Shown here: positions 654-18,302 of the stretch, piece after piece
Position numbering within the stretch: position 1 is the first letter of the stretch
Layout of the letters: each line of letters starts with the position of its first letter
DNA from: a virus
Lineage: Duplodnaviria; Heunggongvirae; Uroviricota; Caudoviricetes
IMG/VR virus record: IMGVR_UViG_2563366807_000009
Length of the DNA stretch: 19,447 nucleotides
Direction: 5' to 3' (one strand)
Program-made: the position numbers and the translations under genes
Notes under the pieces: model-generated
Databases searched by the model: none
The model's input: only the letters and a program-made list of their open reading frames with translations
What the model was told of the DNA's origin: nothing

Positions 654-730
654 GCGCCCTTAGCTCAGTTGGATAGAGCAACGACCTTCTAAGTCGTGGG
701 CCGCAGGTTCGAATCCTGCAGGGCGCGCCA
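654..730 (+). tRNA. argU: tRNA-Arg (anticodon UCU)
   Basis: 77-nt cloverleaf GCGCCCTTAGCTCAGTTGGATAGAGCAACGACCTTCTAAGTCGTGGGCCGCAGGTTCGAATCCTGCAGGGCGCGCCA with encoded CCA end, anticodon loop CT-TCT-AA, GTTCGAATC T-loop. An integrase gene follows immediately, as expected for a prophage attachment tRNA. Confidence 0.95.
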
Positions 731-11293: not shown

Positions 11294-12796
11294 TTAAATT
11301 GCATCTGCAAACTCTGGGGTTTTTCGCTCAGGTATAATTGATGAGTTGCTGTTGTCACTTTTTTTATTTTCATGATTACGAATAGCCAATGACTCATTAA
11401 AGTCTTTTGCGACTGCTGTCTCAATAAATTCAATTTCTGAATCAGAGTGTTTTTTAACAGCTTCTTTGATCTCATCCAGAGTAACATAGAAAAACTCTTT
11501 TCTACGATTTACAAGATTGACTCTCTTTTTATCGAAGACATCATGTAGTTTTTTTTCTAATGATGGAGCGTCCTCCGAATAAATCATGGCATGTACATCA
11601 AAAATAAAAGGAACAGATGCATCACCGAGCTCATTTACACGGTCTTGCGGATCAAGACGTCGTGTCATGCCTATTTTATAAACATTCTCCCCAAAAGAAC
11701 CTATGTTCGAAATAATATAAACATGACCTTGTTTGGTTTGTTGTGCCATGGATAATGCTCTTTGATGCTTTGATTCAGCCTGCGACAAACTCTGTTCTAG
11801 TTCGGCAATGCGATTTTCGAGGCGCTGCTTCATGTCACCAGTAACTTTTTCCATTTCCTTTCTTGCAGCTTCAATTGCTTTTTTATAACGGCGCTCTTCT
11901 GCCTCTGCGTCTTGCATGGCCTTTTCTATTTCTCGTTGTGCACGCTCCTCCTCTCTCATTTGTGCCCTTATTTCTGCCTGTTCTTCTTTTTCTTTCTGTT
12001 TTTGCTCACGATATTCATGGGTAAGCCACAATTCCTCAAGTTTTTTATTGAGGTATTTAGTGTTTATATATATGTGATTTTGCTCGTTTAGTTTATTTAT
12101 GGCCTCAAATGCCTTTGTGATGCGTTCTTCCATTTTAGTGATGTTTTTCCACGTGCAATTGCTAATTGCAGCATCACATTCATTATTAAATGCTCTAGTA
12201 GTTAGCCTGATATTTCTGTCTGTCATTTTTTTACCCTCTGCTCGAGAGCCTTCAACAGTCCATTGGGTTGTACAATATACTGCGCCAGAGTGGGTTTTAT
12301 CCCGCAGCATTAATTTCTGTTCATCCCTGATGGATTTTATTTTGTTTTTAAATTGCTCTGAATCTTCAAAATTAAAATGAGGTTCGTAAAATCCTAGTTC
12401 GGCTAGCTCAACATCTTCTGAATAAATAGAAATTTGCCTTACTAGTTTATCATATATTTCTTTCTTCTCTTTATAAGTTCTTCTTAGCTCTTGGATTTGT
12501 TTATTGATACCATCCATTTTTTCAATGGTGTTTGTTAGTTCATTATTGGCATTTTCTTTTACTTTTAGGGATTCTTCTTTTATTATGGAGCATTCTTGCT
12601 CTGTTTTCTCAATAAGCTTCTTACATTCTTCTTCTACATTAAAATAATCTGCAAAGCGAGATTTGTATTCTTCATTTTTTTGATTGCTATCACTTAATTC
12701 TAATTGTATTTTTTTGATGCGTTTGATTGCAGCTATATAAAGAACAAGAACAACCAATAAAAATATGATTGCAAGTAATAGAGGAGTTTGAGTCAT
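11294..12796 (-). CDS. membrane-anchored coiled-coil protein with C-terminal GIY-YIG/T5orf172-like nuclease domain; candidate anti-phage defence protein
   Basis: 500 aa, strongly AT-rich, convergent with ren. N-terminal hydrophobic helix (LLLAIIFLLVVLVLYIAAI), long E/K/R-rich predicted coiled coils, C-terminal GHVYIISNIGSFGENVYKIGMTRRLDPQDRVNELG...E, i.e. GIY...YIG...R...E spacing. AAGGAA Shine-Dalgarno before the ATG. Confidence 0.85.
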   Translation of the reverse strand: MTQTPLLLAIIFLLVVLVLYIAAIKRIKKIQLELSDSNQKNEEYKSRFADYFNVEEECKKLIEKTEQECSIIKEESLKVKENANNELTNTIEKMDGINKQIQELRRTYKEKKEIYDKLVRQISIYSEDVELAELGFYEPHFNFEDSEQFKNKIKSIRDEQKLMLRDKTHSGAVYCTTQWTVEGSRAEGKKMTDRNIRLTTRAFNNECDAAISNCTWKNITKMEERITKAFEAINKLNEQNHIYINTKYLNKKLEELWLTHEYREQKQKEKEEQAEIRAQMREEERAQREIEKAMQDAEAEERRYKKAIEAARKEMEKVTGDMKQRLENRIAELEQSLSQAESKHQRALSMAQQTKQGHVYIISNIGSFGENVYKIGMTRRLDPQDRVNELGDASVPFIFDVHAMIYSEDAPSLEKKLHDVFDKKRVNLVNRRKEFFYVTLDEIKEAVKKHSDSEIEFIETAVAKDFNESLAIRNHENKKSDNSNSSIIPERKTPEFADAI

Positions 12797-13104
12797 TCGT
12801 GCTATTCCTTACGGACAATTTAAGACGTTTTGTATTAAATCCTGTTCAATGTGTATGCGGGTGATTGCTACCGCTTACAATCTTCATAATTATCAGTTAG
12901 ATAGACTCGCTAGTAAATAATTTCATTTTTTGCAATATTCTTATTGAATATTTCAATTTATGAAATGAACTCTTTATCCTTTCAAGGTGAAAGGTTTCTT
13001 CTTCGGAAATATTTGCTCTCGTGTGACGTATAAAGACCTTTGATTTTCAAAAATCAGTAGGGAATAATATAGTTACTGTCGGCCTGAACACCCGGTGGTG
13101 GGGT

Positions 13105-13196
13105 TGCGCTAAACGGGGACGTTTATGCGCACACACAATCCAAACTCTCATCTCCATTCACAGATGCAGAAATGCACCTACGATTTTTTACATTCG
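13105..13196 (+). repeat. direct repeat copy A (about 92 bp)
   Basis: TGCGCTAAACGGGGACGTTTATGCGCACA... is identical over the first 29 nt to 15039 onward and shows only a few mismatches thereafter. Contains a 10-bp bulged hairpin GCGCTAAACG/CGTTTATGCGC with a GGGA loop. Confidence 0.85.
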
Positions 13197-13341
13197 GTGT
13201 TTTACTTCGACAGCCAGAATTGGGAGTCTCTATTCGTCTGGCGGCTAAAGGTGATATGGAAATCGTTATGTTTTGGCCTGAGGTAGTTGTAACTGTTGTA
13301 GCAGCTATGGATGTGATCATCATGGTGTCCATTTACTGGGG

Positions 13342-13452
13342 TTGACGACATGATTTATCCGGCGCTATATTCTGTGCGTTGCCGCAAAATCGGCACACGG
13401 GATTGGCGTCCCGGGATACTACTCAACGCATACCGCGTTAAGCGGTTTTTTT
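13342..13452 (+). ncRNA. candidate short terminated transcript (sRNA or attenuated leader) upstream of the Bro-N gene
   Basis: TTGACG (13342-13347), 18-bp spacer, TATATT (13366-13371). Downstream, a GC stem ACCGC/GCGGT with GTTAA loop (13432-13446) runs into a T tract to 13452. The region between is GC-rich and self-complementary. No ORF. Confidence 0.3.
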
Positions 13453-13608
13453 GTGCGCTAAGCACGGCTATGCCCAAATTATGGTGGGCTGTGTGAGGGC
13501 TTCTTCGGAAGCGCCGGGTTTGAGTAGCCGGTTACGCCAACCTTACACAGTTCACCACCAGTCGATTGGCGTCGTTGGTGGTGATGGTTAACCTGATGAG
13601 GTGATACT

Positions 13609-14217
13609 ATGACTACTCAATTAGCATTCCACAAAACGACGTTTACCCCGATTTGCCACAATAACAGAATTTGGCTTACTGCCACTGAAGTTGGTTTAGC
13701 ACTGGAATATGCGGACGATAAAGCAGTTCAGCGCATTTACTCTCGGCACTCAGATGAATTCACAGATATGATGACAAGGGTGGTCAAAGTGACCACCCCT
13801 CGTGGAATGCAGGAGTCTCGAGTATTTAGCCTTCGCGGAGCCCATTTGATCGCCATGTTTGCTCGTACTCCTGTGGCCAAAGAATTCCGCCGCTGGGTTC
13901 TGGATATTCTCGATCGAGAAGTTCAACAATCCCCAATCACAAAACAATTCACTGATAACGAACTTTGCACACTCGCCTGGTTATGGCGAGCAAGTGATAC
14001 GATGTTAACCGCCTGCCAGAACGTTACGCCCCTTCTTCAGGTCGCAGAGCATCGCGAAGCAGGTAGATTCACTTCAATCGAACAAGAATATCCTCGGATA
14101 CTCAACAGGGCGCGAGAAATCCTTGCCAGAGAAACGGCGCATGTAAAATTCCAACCGTGGCAGGATGATAAGTGGAGTCGTGTGTTACCATATTTCCGTC
14201 AGAATCTGTTGCAATAA
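13609..14217 (+). CDS. Bro-N domain antirepressor-like protein
   Basis: 202 aa, GAGGTG Shine-Dalgarno. N-terminal IWLTATEVGLALEYADDKAVQRIYSRHSDEF...RVFSLRGAHLIAMFARTPVAKEFRRWVLDIL fits the Bro-N/antirepressor pattern as I know it. Confidence 0.75.
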   Translation: MTTQLAFHKTTFTPICHNNRIWLTATEVGLALEYADDKAVQRIYSRHSDEFTDMMTRVVKVTTPRGMQESRVFSLRGAHLIAMFARTPVAKEFRRWVLDILDREVQQSPITKQFTDNELCTLAWLWRASDTMLTACQNVTPLLQVAEHREAGRFTSIEQEYPRILNRAREILARETAHVKFQPWQDDKWSRVLPYFRQNLLQ

Positions 14218-14236
14218 AGTCACTAGTTAGAAATAC

Positions 14237-14277
14237 TGCCAGCATTCTGCGATGACGGAAGTGCTGGCATTTTTTTT
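14237..14277 (+). terminator. Rho-independent terminator after the Bro-N gene
   Basis: 8-bp stem TGCCAGCA/TGCTGGCA (14237-14244 and 14262-14269) followed by eight T residues (14270-14277). Confidence 0.7.
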
Positions 14278-14452
14278 GGTAATGTGCGAGTCCATTTCAT
14301 AAAATACGGGTACTGGAACTGGACGATATAATCTAAAAGATACCATTATCAGTAGCATTAAAATCGCTATGTGCCGATACGGATATAAATTATATTGATT
14401 GTTCACATACCTTATTGGATATTACTGAGGGGTGTTTATATAAGGTGTAACG

Positions 14453-16424: not shown

Positions 16425-16561
16425 TGTTTGAGTTTAATATGGCAGAACTTCTTCGCCACCGCTGGGGGCGTCTGCGCTTATATCGTTTCCCCGGCTCTGT
16501 TTTGACCGATTACCGAATACTGAAGAATTACGCCAAAACACTGACAGGAGCAGGAGTATGA
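16421..16561 (+). CDS. ylcG: YlcG-like small protein (46 aa)
   Basis: ATG overlaps the rusA stop (ATGA). [46 protein letters not shown]. Position and length as in DLP12. Hand-translated. Confidence 0.6.
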
Positions 16562-16646
16562 AGTCAGAGATAACAATCAACTAATACTGTTTTGTTGATT
16601 TTTGCTTGTAATTGGCGTTCTGGTCTGAGTTTTGTGGAGTAAGTTG

Positions 16647-17030
16647 ATGCGTGATATTCAGATGGTTCTTGAGCGTTGGGGAGCGTGGGCGGCTAATAAT
16701 CATGAAGATGTGACCTGGTCGTCCATTGCCGCCGGTTTTAAGGGATTAATTCCTTCAAAAGTAAAATCTCGCCCGCAATGTTGTGACGATGACGCGATGA
16801 TCATTTGCGGGTGCATGGCCCGTCTGAAAAAGAACAACAGCGATTTGCACGATTTATTAGTAGATTATTATGTAGTCGGTATGACATTCATGTCACTGGC
16901 AGGTAAGCATTGCTGCTCTGATGGTTATATCGGGAAAAGGTTACAAAAGGCTGAGGGCATAATTGAAGGGATGTTAATGGCATTAGATATCCGGTTAGAG
17001 ATGGATATCGTTGTTAATAACTCTAATTAA
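16647..17030 (+). CDS. quuD: late-gene antiterminator Q (phage 82/DLP12 QuuD-type)
   Basis: 127 aa from ATG 16647 (GGAG 7 nt upstream): [60 protein letters not shown]..., Cys-rich. Last gene before the late/lysis region. The track's TTG start at 16632 is less likely. Confidence 0.85.
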
Positions 17031-17219: not shown

Positions 17220-18302
17220 TTAGAACTGGTAAACCAGACCTACAGCAACGATGTCATCAGTATCAATACCAGCTGTTTTGGTAAACTTACTATCGTCAAT
17301 TAAGTTGATTTTGTAATCAACAAAAGTGGACATGTTTTTATTAAAGTAGTAAGTAGCACCGACATCGACATACTTGACTAAGTCTCGGTCACCATGAACA
17401 CCAAGGTCTTTACCTTTTGACTGAAGGTAAGCAACAGATGGGCGCAGACCGAAGTCAAACTGATATTGTGCTACTGCTTCAAAGTTTTGTGCTTTGTTTG
17501 CAATATGGTTATTACCAAAAACGGTCATATTCTGAGTTTCAGAATATGTGGTAGCCAGATAGATATTGTTCGCATCATATTTCAGGCCTGCAGCCCATAC
17601 TTCCGCATTTTTGCCGGAGGCATTGAATTTGCTCTTACCATAGGCGACCTGACCGTCAGTGCGATCTGATTTAGCATAGGTTGCACCCACGCCGAATCCT
17701 TCATACTCATAAGTAGTGGAGAAACCGAAACCATCACCATTGGCTTCAGTTACGTCAGTGCGGTCATTTTTACCCTGATACTGAGCAGCAAAGTTCAGGC
17801 CATCGACCAGACCAAAGAAGTCGTTGTTACGATAAGTTGCAACACCAGTAGTGCGACCAGTCATGAACACATCTGTTTGGGTCCAGGTATCACCACCGAA
17901 TTCTGGCAGGACGTCAGTCCACGCACCGATGTCGTATGCTACACCGTAGTTACGGCCGTAATCGATTGAGCCGTAATCACCAAATTTCAGGCCTGCAAAT
18001 GCAAGACGGGTTTTGTCTTTGGAAGAACCTTGAGATTCAGCGCGGTTGCCTTTGAATTCATATTCCCACTGACCGAAACCAGTCAGTTGATCGTTGATTT
18101 GGGTTTCACCTTTGAAGCCAAGACGGGCATAAGTAGTATCACCATCATCTGCATCATTAGAGGAGAAGTAGTGCTTAGCATTAACTTTCCCGTACAGATC
18201 CAGCTTGTTACTGTCTTTATTATAAATTTCAGCTGCCTGAGCAGACATCGCCATCAGTACTGATGCAGCTACAGCAGAAATTGCCACTGTTAATTTTTTC
18301 AT
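17220..18302 (-). CDS. nmpC: outer-membrane porin, OmpC/OmpF family (NmpC/Lc-type), apparently intact
   Basis: 360 aa with signal peptide [29 protein letters not shown], porin hallmarks and C-terminal ...VAVGLVYQF. Uninterrupted here. Confidence 0.93.

Follow-up and report, generated by a model that had tools for sequence, protein, structure and literature searches.

What kind of control element, if any, occupies the DNA in front of a prophage antirepressor gene when no gene has been assigned to it? The stretch of viral DNA analyzed here, 19,447 nucleotides in length and referred to below as the window, contains an 813-nt stretch at this locus that is unannotated in RefSeq and in the deposited phage record, with no RNA entered in RefSeq. 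We find that the region is a copy of a phage RNA switch that has already been described, functional-looking but not new, and that, as read from the sequence, a small IsrK-type RNA is followed by a C4-type antisense RNA and then by the antirepressor gene. We consider it likely that an immI-type RNA switch, assembled from two known RNA families, guards the antirepressor gene of this prophage, in which case what has gone unannotated is the RNA control of a prophage antirepressor, a determinant of induction. The present analysis contributes family membership, structures, complementarity with covariation, and collinearity with P1 and Gifsy-1; support from sRNA production, read-through, a1:a' pairing, activation by IsrK, and repression by c4 is borrowed from experiments on homologs.

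Two RNA families upstream of the antirepressor gene

The first-pass annotation had proposed a near-consensus sigma70 promoter followed by a GC hairpin and a T7 tract with no ORF between them, and each of these elements was recovered, the hairpin having a 5-bp stem (Table 1). The promoter is the best promoter-like site within 12700-13800, its position is homologous to Gifsy-1 PisrK and P1 P51b (P1c4), and its -35 and -10 elements line up and show conservation in a three-way alignment of the window, P1, and Gifsy-1. Across 93 distinct homologous upstream regions, the -10 element of the best promoter-like match ends 12 nt before GCAAAATC in 85, and a match of at least 9/12 is present in 69. From a start near 13379 to the terminator, a transcript of approximately 75 nt is predicted, laid out as hairpin 1, the a1 hairpin, a b1 linker, and a terminator hairpin with a U7 tract. 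This transcript contains no AUG, and the listed ORFs that span the unit (13350-13496 on the plus strand, starting inside the promoter spacer, and 13355-13477 on the minus strand) are mechanical only.

The predicted transcript matches the Rfam family isrK (RF01394) at 13380-13452 on the plus strand with 58.7 bits (E = 1.6e-10, model positions 1-77), above the curated gathering score of 50 bits. Like the members of that family it has three hairpins, the last an intrinsic terminator with a U-tract, and its own promoter, and it precedes a C4-fold element and an antirepressor gene, both encoded on its own strand. The Rfam model c4-a1b1 (RF03163) scored 39.6 bits at 13365-13417, below its gathering score of 46.7 bits, and is above threshold in P1 (51.0 bits) and Gifsy-1 (48.1 bits); because the c4-a1b1 and isrK models cover the same nucleotides, they correspond to overlapping portions of a single element. 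Covariation is seen in hairpin 1 and the terminator, with compensatory changes in 9 of 18 IsrK pairs, and a run of at least five T follows the terminator in 88 of 93 distinct homologs. The terminator is probably leaky, by analogy with Gifsy-1, where read-through of the IsrK terminator has been demonstrated (PMC4825925). In Salmonella, Gifsy-1 IsrK is an experimentally mapped 77-nt sRNA that activates AnrP translation (PMC2330248, PMC4825925), and a stable, Hfq-associated IsrK sRNA of approximately 77 nt is known only for that genus (PMC2330248).

The suggestion of a structured leader was also borne out by homology, although the C4-like RNA at its center and the b1/b'/b2 sites had gone unrecognized. 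Located between the two copies of a 10-mer repeat, this RNA matches Rfam C4 (RF01695) over the whole of the plus-strand interval given in Table 1 with 74.8 bits (E = 2.7e-13, model positions 1-87; curated gathering score, 45 bits). It is strongly structured (minimum free energy -42.9 kcal/mol, z = -5.9), and the minimum free energy structure reproduces the family fold of a long closing stem around two hairpins. The RNA stems covary in both elements: compensatory changes occur in 17 of the 24 predicted C4 pairs (49 sequences) in addition to those in IsrK. Its a' and b' segments are unpaired and complementary to a2 and b2, which lie where translation of the downstream gene starts. Homology to c4 as annotated in P1 predicts a mature C4 spanning 13483-13559 (77 nt), and P1 shares both the surroundings of the homologous cut site (AAUUAU^GGUGGG) and the 3' ...CCACC. 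The P1 c4 RNA is reportedly excised from a longer precursor, with RNase P acting at the 5' end. In Salmonella, the same region gives rise to STnc1160, a processed species of approximately 80 nt that is expressed in lysogens under all conditions tested.

The gene that follows encodes a product with matches to P22_AR_C (1.7e-17) and Bro-N (4.4e-10) in Pfam, and this protein clusters with Gifsy-1-type AnrP-like proteins, which are found downstream of 29 of 51 homologous modules. The genes downstream of these modules are mostly of antirepressor type (Bro-N/ORF6N, P22_AR_N, KilA-N, and weak Rha) or Icd-like, with the family unrecognized in 7 of the 51. An icd gene is absent at this locus, and ant comes next without an intervening gene. 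A 36-codon frame resembling orf45 runs through and just past C4 and has no Pfam match; we rejected it as a conserved protein-coding gene, as it is only modestly more open than other frames and is broken in P1 and nine other homologs. A mir-725 match at 14225-14283 was discarded as spurious (23 bits against a gathering score of 76).

Table 1. Positions of the promoter, RNA elements, complementary sites, and reading frames at the antirepressor locus, numbered from the first nucleotide of the window.
Feature	Position	Strand	Basis or remark
Sigma-70 promoter, TTGACG-18-TATATT	-35 13342-13347; -10 13366-13371	+	Score 10/12
IsrK-type small RNA, ~75 nt	13379-13453	+	Rfam match and predicted fold
IsrK hairpin 1	13380-13395	+	Predicted fold
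IsrK hairpin 2 (a1 hairpin), CGGGAU/GUCCCG	13398-13413	+	Predicted fold
a1, UUGGCGU	13403-13409	+	Loop of IsrK hairpin 2; core of first 10-mer
b1, CUACUCAA	13419-13426	+	Single-stranded IsrK linker
IsrK intrinsic terminator, stem ACCGC/GCGGT and T7	stem 13432-13446; T7 13447-13453	+	Prediction
C4-type antisense RNA, 86 nt	13477-13562	+	Rfam match, fold, covariation
orf45-like frame, 36 codons, inside and just after C4	13481-13591	+	Translated status uncertain
b', UUGAGUAG	13520-13527	+	Loop of second internal hairpin of C4
a', ACGCCAA	13534-13540	+	Unpaired joint of C4; includes CGCCAA
a2, UUGGCGU	13566-13572	+	Hairpin loop; core of second 10-mer
Shine-Dalgarno sequence GAGGUGAU and start codon AUG of the antirepressor gene	13598-13605; 13609-13611	+	
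Antirepressor gene, 202 aa, Bro-N and P22_AR_C; regulated target	13609-14217	+	Pfam, RefSeq CDS start
b2, CUACUCAA	13613-13620	+	Codons 2-4 of the antirepressor gene

Complementary site triplets and their covariation

The 10-mer GATTGGCGTC, singled out earlier as a repeat, has exactly two copies in the 19.4 kb analyzed (13401-13410 and 13564-13573). This is far beyond chance, with an expected count of 0.04 and at least two matches in 0 of 200 dinucleotide-preserving shuffles. The hairpins that had been drawn around both copies are predicted by our folding as well, the second formed by CACCACCA (13553-13560) and TGGTGGTG (13576-13583) and sharing its 5' arm with the 3' end of the C4 closing stem. 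A complementary CGCCAA is likewise present, one base from where it had been placed (13535-13540, not 13536-13541). The relationship is that of a triplet, as a1 and a2 are identical and both are the exact reverse complement of a' over 7 nt. A second triplet, missed on first reading, has the same design: b1 and b2 are identical and are the exact reverse complement of b' over 8 nt. An a-like 8-mer (ATTGGCGT) also lies at 16611-16618, upstream of the Q gene; no b site was found near it, and chance alone would be expected to give a 7-8 nt match in a window of this length.

Pairing between the sites was judged by opening energies and short-duplex energies. RNAduplex folding of the whole C4 against IsrK or the leader was dropped, having yielded long unspecific duplexes; cofolding cannot represent loop-to-strand pairing because such pairing is pseudoknot-like. 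The opening energies are 0.0 kcal/mol for a' and 1.3 kcal/mol for b', and a', b', a1, and b1 all open at no more than 2.4 kcal/mol.

Homologous units were fetched from viral contigs by a pattern in which part of IsrK is fixed, and were then filtered by a regular expression in which part of C4 is fixed, so that conservation of the fixed IsrK and C4 columns is by construction. Among the 95 distinct viral-contig units obtained, the C4 core is at a fixed distance and there are 47 different b' loops. Both triplets change in concert across approximately 50 distinct homologous units drawn from viral contigs, P1, and Gifsy-1. For the 47 distinct loops, complementarity between b' and the b1 of its own unit has a median of 8 nt, compared with a mean of 4.1 nt for non-self combinations, and the corresponding values for b' and b2 are a median of 8 nt and a non-self mean of approximately 5 nt. 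At the a sites, a1 is the exact reverse complement of a' in all 50 distinct units and a2 in 47 of them, with concerted change of a1, a', and a2 in P1 and in the units L068 and L081, while in L045 a1 and a' have changed and a2 matches at 6 of 7 positions. The hairpin flanking a2 is conserved too, with a median of 7 bp as opposed to 4.8 bp for shuffled flanks.

Collinearity with P1 immI and Gifsy-1 isrK

The locus aligns end to end with both P1 immI and the Gifsy-1 isrK-orf45-anrP region, and these are closer analogues than P22, to which the locus had at first been compared. With the Gifsy-1 isrK-orf45(STnc1160)-anrP locus (Padalon-Brauch 2008, PMC2330248; Hershko-Shalev 2016, PMC4825925) it shares, in identical order, the promoter, IsrK with its own terminator, the C4-fold element, and an antirepressor gene of the Bro-N/ORF6N cluster. 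The antirepressor products of both loci begin MTTQ, the a sites are identical (UUGGCGU / ACGCCAA), and both loci exceed the gathering thresholds for isrK and C4. Two compensatory pairs proven genetically in Gifsy-1, IsrK G28:C162 and G31:C159 (PMC4825925), map onto a1:a' as G13405:C13538 and G13408:C13535 of the window. The loci differ in their b sites, as Gifsy-1 has the b' loop UCGGUGAU and a b2 (AUCACCG) next to the Shine-Dalgarno sequence, whereas in the window b' is UUGAGUAG and b2 falls in codons 2-4. They differ further in that the orf45 stop overlaps the anrP AUG in Gifsy-1 and lies 17 nt upstream of the ant AUG in the window, in the flanking genes (antQ immediately upstream and isrJ downstream in Gifsy-1; no match to isrJ in the window), and in host, Salmonella for Gifsy-1 and E. 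coli for the window.

The immI operon order of promoter, a1, b1, c4, a2, b2, and antirepressor gene is found in the window and matches the P1 record (NC_005856), in which a1, b1, c4, a2, and b2 are annotated. The P1/P7 immI region (P51b-a1-b1-c4-a2-b2-icd-ant; Citron and Schuster 1990) follows the same three-site logic and element order and has a C4 fold (68.8 bits in P1), an IsrK-like terminator hairpin between b1 and c4 (isrK 35 bits, c4-a1b1 51 bits), and an a2 just 3' of c4 in a hairpin with the 3' strand of c4; in P1, antisense pairing at the ribosome-binding site represses antirepressor synthesis, a function that the locus in the window would share. In contrast to the window, P1 has the a site UUGACAG, a small icd between c4 and ant with b2 covering the icd Shine-Dalgarno sequence, and a second, C1-controlled promoter, P51a, upstream, and it is a plasmid prophage rather than an integrated lambdoid one.

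A candidate switch and its alternatives

Most likely, by analogy with these systems, C4 represses translation of the antirepressor through a2 and b2, and an IsrK decoy relieves the block. Transcription would start near 13379 from the constitutive-looking sigma-70 promoter, and most transcripts would end at the terminator to give the approximately 75-nt IsrK-type sRNA that displays a1 and b1. Read-through transcripts would run into the C4-type RNA and on into the antirepressor mRNA, with C4 probably cut out as a stable RNA of approximately 77 nt, as for P1 c4 and Salmonella STnc1160. The exposed a' and b' of C4 could then pair with a2 and b2, which lie on either side of the ant Shine-Dalgarno sequence and start codon, and such pairing would block initiation of ant translation and keep the prophage repressor safe. 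Terminated IsrK would carry identical a and b sequences that are easier to reach and would act as a decoy; as it would compete for C4, in cis or in trans, antirepressor translation would be turned on. The earlier idea of a small RNA or a regulated leader controlling the antirepressor gains support from homology in isrK, C4, the a sites, and the antirepressor domains. By analogy we infer that the E. coli copy is expressed, that its C4 is processed, and that b2 pairing in codons 2-4 is enough to block initiation. Several observations count against this switch: a2 is partly buried by prediction (opening energy 8.2 kcal/mol), the a2-b2 spacing of 40 nt is longer than in most homologs, and b2 follows the AUG, while in most homologs it overlaps the Shine-Dalgarno sequence, its end falling 6-12 nt short of the start codon. 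Likewise, co-expression of STnc1160 with IsrK in the Gifsy-1 work led to stronger, not weaker, toxicity (PMC4825925).

A strict reading of the Gifsy-1 model, which we hold to be possible but doubtful here, treats 13481-13591 mainly as a translated upstream ORF, the homolog of orf45, that turns ant on by translational coupling; IsrK would open a closing stem that hides the ORF start, and the C4 fold would be an inhibitory structure rather than a trans-acting antisense RNA. At its 5' end the C4 stem does carry a conserved AUGG, from which the 36-codon frame starts, and the frame is open through C4 in 51 of 61 homologs, compared with 39 and 33 for the other frames. In Gifsy-1, SPA-tagged orf45 is translated, mutations of its start or stop lower anrP activation, and the authors explain activation by orf45 translation and coupling, not by release of a C4:a2/b2 duplex (PMC4825925). 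However, the same paper describes conservation of the nucleotide but not the amino-acid sequence (PMC4825925), the frame is broken in 10 of the 61 homologs, including P1, and four further units lack the AUGG. In the window, no Shine-Dalgarno sequence precedes the AUG at 13481, the stop lies 17 nt short of the ant AUG without overlap, and processing at the 5' end predicted from the P1 c4 annotation would split the AUG. Translation of the frame also leaves the covariation of a2/b2 with a'/b' unexplained. Control at the level of transcription, of the P4 CI type or by P1-type polarity, appears unlikely: pairing of C4 with a1/b1 or a2/b2 would alter termination at the IsrK terminator or through Rho downstream, and the main output would be the amount of read-through, not translation initiation. 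In P1, blocked icd translation is said to cause a Rho-dependent loss of ant transcription, which favors such a reading. The P4 CI RNA resembles the C4 arrangement by analogy, as a processed RNA from an untranslated leader that pairs with two target copies, seqA and seqC, one on each side, but its output is premature transcription termination of replication genes rather than translational control of an antirepressor. The Gifsy-1 authors themselves raise transcriptional control and call IsrK a structural homolog of P4 SeqA, and they report an 8-fold rise of a transcriptional fusion with IsrK in trans (PMC4825925). Against such control, the response of the translational fusion was far stronger, at 139-fold (PMC4825925), and the a2 hairpin of the window lacks a T-run behind it. 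In most homologs, moreover, b2 is placed on the Shine-Dalgarno sequence or start codon, which points to control of initiation.

The comparison with P22 offered by the first-pass annotation captures antisense control of an antirepressor, but only loosely, as all of the RNAs here are on the ant strand. P22 sar is a small RNA that limits antirepressor translation by pairing at the initiation region, but it is cis-encoded on the opposite strand and has no sequence or structure in common with IsrK or C4. An arrangement of that kind, with a small opposite-strand RNA spanning the ant ribosome-binding site, is highly improbable at this locus: the general analogy that P22 ant is under antisense RNA control is its sole support, no minus-strand promoter-like site was found in 12918-13800 (and so none near 13560-13640), there is no minus-strand Rfam match, and both Rfam matches and all complementary sites are on the ant strand. 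The idea that the intergenic spacer is non-functional and that its repeats and hairpins arose by coincidence is already refuted and retains practically no probability. We found nothing in its support; against it stand the shuffling result for the 10-mer pair, two curated covariance models matched above threshold, three-way covariation of sites across approximately 50 alleles, and at least 99% identity of the 401-bp region (query 13300-13700) in 119 E. coli genomes.

The locus contributes nothing new in kind, but three points of use emerge from the comparison. Homology between the classical immI region of P1 and the experimentally studied isrK locus of Gifsy-1 extends over their whole length; the element called 'orf45' in Gifsy-1 belongs to the C4 RNA family; and the system comes in many specificity alleles, preceding antirepressor genes of several types. 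Taken jointly, these points would help to reconcile two mechanistic models held apart in the literature that we searched. IsrK and c4 are handled as unrelated entries in those papers, while Rfam implicitly overlaps them. The Gifsy-1 paper (PMC4825925) and a 2025 review draw no link from IsrK/orf45 to P1 c4, and the Weinberg 2010 supplement, which summarizes an earlier proposal of a decoy role for a1/b1 in P1 and covers c4, c4-a1b1, and the decoy idea, does not mention IsrK. On balance we lean slightly toward the view that both published models describe one three-site switch, including C4 identity, the IsrK decoy, and a b address code. In such a switch orf45/STnc1160 may be a bona fide C4 immunity RNA that represses ant via a2/b2, and IsrK may be a diffusible, terminated a1/b1 decoy that titrates the C4 RNA. 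If so, the b triplet, which is hypervariable and has at least 47 alleles, with concerted change at all three sites, would constitute a private address code for each prophage, preventing cross-induction and cross-repression between co-resident prophages.

The prophage in the window is integrated and lambdoid and adjoins a tRNA-Arg gene in E. coli. A PD-lambda-1 defence gene lies upstream in the window, and Q is located 3 kb downstream.

Two adjoining RNAs upstream of ant

With gathering thresholds applied, an Rfam scan of the window yielded two adjoining plus-strand matches, isrK (RF01394; 58.7 bits, gathering score 50) and C4 antisense RNA (RF01695; 74.8 bits, gathering score 45). The curated thresholds place each RNA in a curated family, and on the strength of these matches the promoter-to-terminator unit can be assigned as an IsrK-type sRNA and the stretch between the two 10-mers, left undescribed by the first-pass annotation, as a C4-type RNA. 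Folding reproduced the C4 family structure (-42.9 kcal/mol, z = -5.9). An additional permissive scan placed c4-a1b1 (RF03163), which Rfam describes as 'a1, b1 targets of C4 antisense RNA', in overlap with the isrK match at 39.6 bits, under its gathering score of 46.7.

The elements listed in the first-pass annotation fit this assignment. The promoter (TTGACG, 18-nt spacer, TATATT; 10/12) is the top-scoring site in the region, the GC hairpin is followed by T7, predicted folding agrees with both hairpins claimed, and GATTGGCGTC is present at 13401-13410 and 13564-13573. This 10-mer has an expected count of 0.04 in the window and none of 200 shuffles held two copies; these values and the two Rfam matches above threshold exclude a chance origin of the repeats and hairpins. 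The sole correction concerns the complementary CGCCAA, which lies at 13535-13540, one base before the reported 13536-13541. The first-pass annotation correctly rediscovered, from first principles, an RNA module that has already been dissected in P1/P7 and Gifsy-1, and together with the curated families this makes the module of the window a known one.

We named the pairing sites after the annotated P1 record, in which a pairs with the unpaired C4 joint and b with the loop of the second internal C4 hairpin. The two 10-mer copies correspond to a1 and a2 and CGCCAA to a', while the b triplet is added here. According to predicted opening energies, the C4 sites are essentially free, the IsrK sites are readily opened and a2 is partly buried.

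Features of the window, with predicted opening energies of the pairing sites
Feature	Position	Strand	Description	Opening energy (kcal/mol)
tRNA-Arg(UCU)	654-730		anticodon TCT; adjoins integrase gene	
Integrase gene	746-1909	minus	directly beside tRNA-Arg	
DUF4041 'PD-lambda-1' gene	11294-12796	minus	500-aa protein, DUF4041 and T5orf172/MUG113 domains; name from PhiR26_1 annotation	
Promoter	13342-13371			
c4-a1b1 match	13365-13417			
isrK match	13380-13452	plus		
a1	13403-13409		UUGGCGU; loop of IsrK hairpin 2	2.4
b1	13419-13426		CUACUCAA; IsrK linker	1.2
Terminator hairpin	13432-13446			
C4 match	13477-13562	plus		
orf45-like frame	13481-13591		36 codons	
b'	13520-13527		UUGAGUAG; C4 hairpin loop	1.3
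a'	13534-13540		ACGCCAA; C4 joint	0.0
a2	13566-13572		UUGGCGU; ant leader	8.2
b2	13613-13620		CUACUCAA; codons 2-4 of ant (AUG at 13609)	2.9
Porin gene	17220-18302	minus	RefSeq 'ompC'	

Comparison with Gifsy-1, P1 and homologous units

The Gifsy-1 locus matches isrK (79.3 bits), C4 (69.0 bits) and c4-a1b1 (48.1 bits), and its C4 match covers the element named orf45 by Hershko-Shalev et al. (PMC4825925), from which the stable ~80-nt species STnc1160 is processed. Two compensatory pairs proven in Gifsy-1, G28:C162 and G31:C159 (numbered from the IsrK 5' end; PMC4825925), map exactly into a1:a', their equivalents in the window being G13405:C13538 and G13408:C13535. The immI region of P1, whose GenBank record annotates promoter P51b, a1, b1, c4, a2, b2, icd and ant, matches C4 (68.8 bits), c4-a1b1 (51.0 bits) and isrK (35 bits), and the isrK match takes in a terminator-like hairpin between b1 and c4. 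In a three-way alignment, window, Gifsy-1 and P1 are collinear from the -35 box through the start codon. Judged by sequence, IsrK/orf45 and c4 are one and the same module; the literature searched contains no link between them and treats them as separate systems. The new points made here are mild and synthetic only.

The hairpin between b1 and c4 in P1 (about 695-716 of the P1 locus, L124) is accompanied by a T5 run. P1 may, to go by these features, make a short a1/b1 RNA too, of which we know of no report.

The conserved IsrK core, used as an exact pattern against viral contigs, was matched at 120 loci; in 95 distinct units, carrying 47 different b' loops, a C4 core follows IsrK at a fixed distance. 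Part of IsrK was set by this pattern and part of C4 by the regular expression, which makes conservation of the columns concerned a product of the search design; covariation of the b sites, the stems and the variant a sites is not such a product. Each b' loop has a complementary segment (median 8 nt) in its own IsrK, about 10 nt after a1, and another (median 8 nt) in its own downstream region, 40-50 nt after C4, against mean complementarities of ~4 and ~5 nt, respectively, to the units of other alleles. The b sites amount to a large set of co-varying specificity alleles, one of the mildly new points. The a sites are nearly invariant, a1 being the reverse complement of a' in 50/50 units and a2 in 47/50, and variants are altered together in a1, a' and a2 (P1, UUGACAG; L068, UUGGCCU; L081, UUGGCAU); in L045 (UUGGCAG) a1 and a' are altered and a2 matches at 6/7 positions.

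RNAalifold, run on one representative per allele, recorded compensatory changes at 17 of the 24 pairs in C4 and 9 of the 18 in IsrK. Among 93 distinct upstream regions, 69 have a best promoter-like match of at least 9/12, and in 85 the -10 of the best match ends 12 nt ahead of the conserved GCAAAAUC; a run of at least five T follows b1 in 88 of 93 distinct units. The hairpin around a2, already noted in the first-pass annotation, is likewise conserved (median 7 bp versus 4.8 bp in shuffled flanks), and its compensatory variants include GCCACC/GGUGGC and CAUCACC/GGUGAUG. The 3' strand of the C4 closing stem serves as the 5' arm of this hairpin, so the hairpin and the closing stem cannot form together. 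In homologs b2 usually overlaps the Shine-Dalgarno sequence and ends 6-12 nt ahead of the start codon; in the window it starts one base past the AUG, and this placement inside the coding region is a further mildly new point. Bro-N/ORF6N-type antirepressors form the largest cluster of downstream genes (29 of 51, window included), followed by nine small Icd-like proteins grouping with Icd of P1; two carry P22_AR_N, two KilA-N, one has a weak Rha match and seven have no recognised family.

Several units depart from the common layout. The five that lack the T run (L046, L117 and three more) may fail to terminate IsrK as a separate sRNA. A subset has ~40 extra nt between IsrK and C4 (C4 core offset 221 nt versus ~180 nt), including L015, L021, L058, L062, L085 and L109, with an Icd-like small gene downstream as in P1, and L080 and L083, whose downstream gene is not Icd-like. 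One contig (L030) holds two IsrK-C4-antirepressor modules 3.3 kb apart, around 3964 and 7226, with differing b' loops (UUUCCGUAC, AUGUUUCGA) that each match their own b1 and b2.

Probable control of ant

For the window itself, membership of the families, the folds and two covarying complementary triplets are demonstrated. Work on homologs shows IsrK to be a terminated sRNA, with partial read-through, that pairs with the a'/b' region and activates antirepressor translation, and c4 to repress through a2/b2; in P1, c4 RNA pairs around the ribosome-binding site and so represses the synthesis of antirepressor. Lysogens with Gifsy-1 express IsrK and STnc1160 under all conditions examined. In Gifsy-1, IsrK in trans raises anrP translation 139-fold (PMC4825925). 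Competition of a1/b1 with a2/b2 for c4 is an idea of Citron and Schuster 1990, according to the Weinberg 2010 supplement.

By extension, C4 of the window, in cis or after excision, would pair with a2 and b2. As the two sites lie on either side of the Shine-Dalgarno sequence (13598-13605) and AUG, such pairing would block 30S binding. Pairing within the first five codons was reportedly enough for other sRNAs in the work of Bouvier et al. 2008. IsrK, presenting the same two sites accessibly, would titrate C4 and so derepress ant. We regard it as likely that C4 blocks ant through a2/b2 and that the IsrK decoy relieves this block.

The main rival, compatible with the C4/decoy picture, is the reading developed for Gifsy-1, in which translation of an orf45-like frame is coupled to ant. 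This frame, whose start is the conserved AUGG of the C4 stem, is open in 51 of 61 homologs and broken in the other 10, P1 among them; in the window it lacks a Shine-Dalgarno sequence and stops 17 nt short of the ant AUG. Moreover, its AUG would be lost at the C4 5' end predicted from the annotated c4 of P1 (U13482/G13483); as the AUG straddles this end, C4 processing and translation of the frame would be mutually exclusive, and we consider coupling rather unlikely here. A transcription-level component, by Rho polarity or P4-CI-like termination, appears less probable still. The analogy with P22 originally proposed is only a loose one, and a sar-like opposite-strand RNA is highly improbable because no minus-strand promoter was found in 12918-13800.

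Prophage setting

The sequence of the window is that of a lambdoid E. coli prophage, with integrase, cI/cro/O/P/ren, nin-region genes, Q and lysis genes. The tRNA-Arg/integrase junction marks the attachment-site end, as it does in DLP12-type elements at argU. A 401-bp query (13300-13700) finds 119 complete E. coli genomes at 99% identity or more and phage PhiR26_1 at 99.8%; neither the E. coli genome nor the PhiR26_1 annotation has a feature between the 'PD-lambda-1' gene and ant. The ant product carries Bro-N and P22_AR_C domains and is therefore an antirepressor.

'PD-lambda-1', an anti-phage defence gene, occupies an insertion on the opposite strand between ren and the IsrK promoter, and the porin gene, between Q and the lysis cassette, is cargo of the lysogenic-conversion type. 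ACGCCAA recurs at 16530-16536 and ATTGGCGT, eight bases of the 10-mer, at 16611-16618; the quuD-like Q gene starts at 16647, ~29 nt downstream of the latter. There is no b-type site near either, so these a-like sequences are probably due to chance; in Gifsy-1, AnrP raises antQ expression, which makes their position near Q curious.
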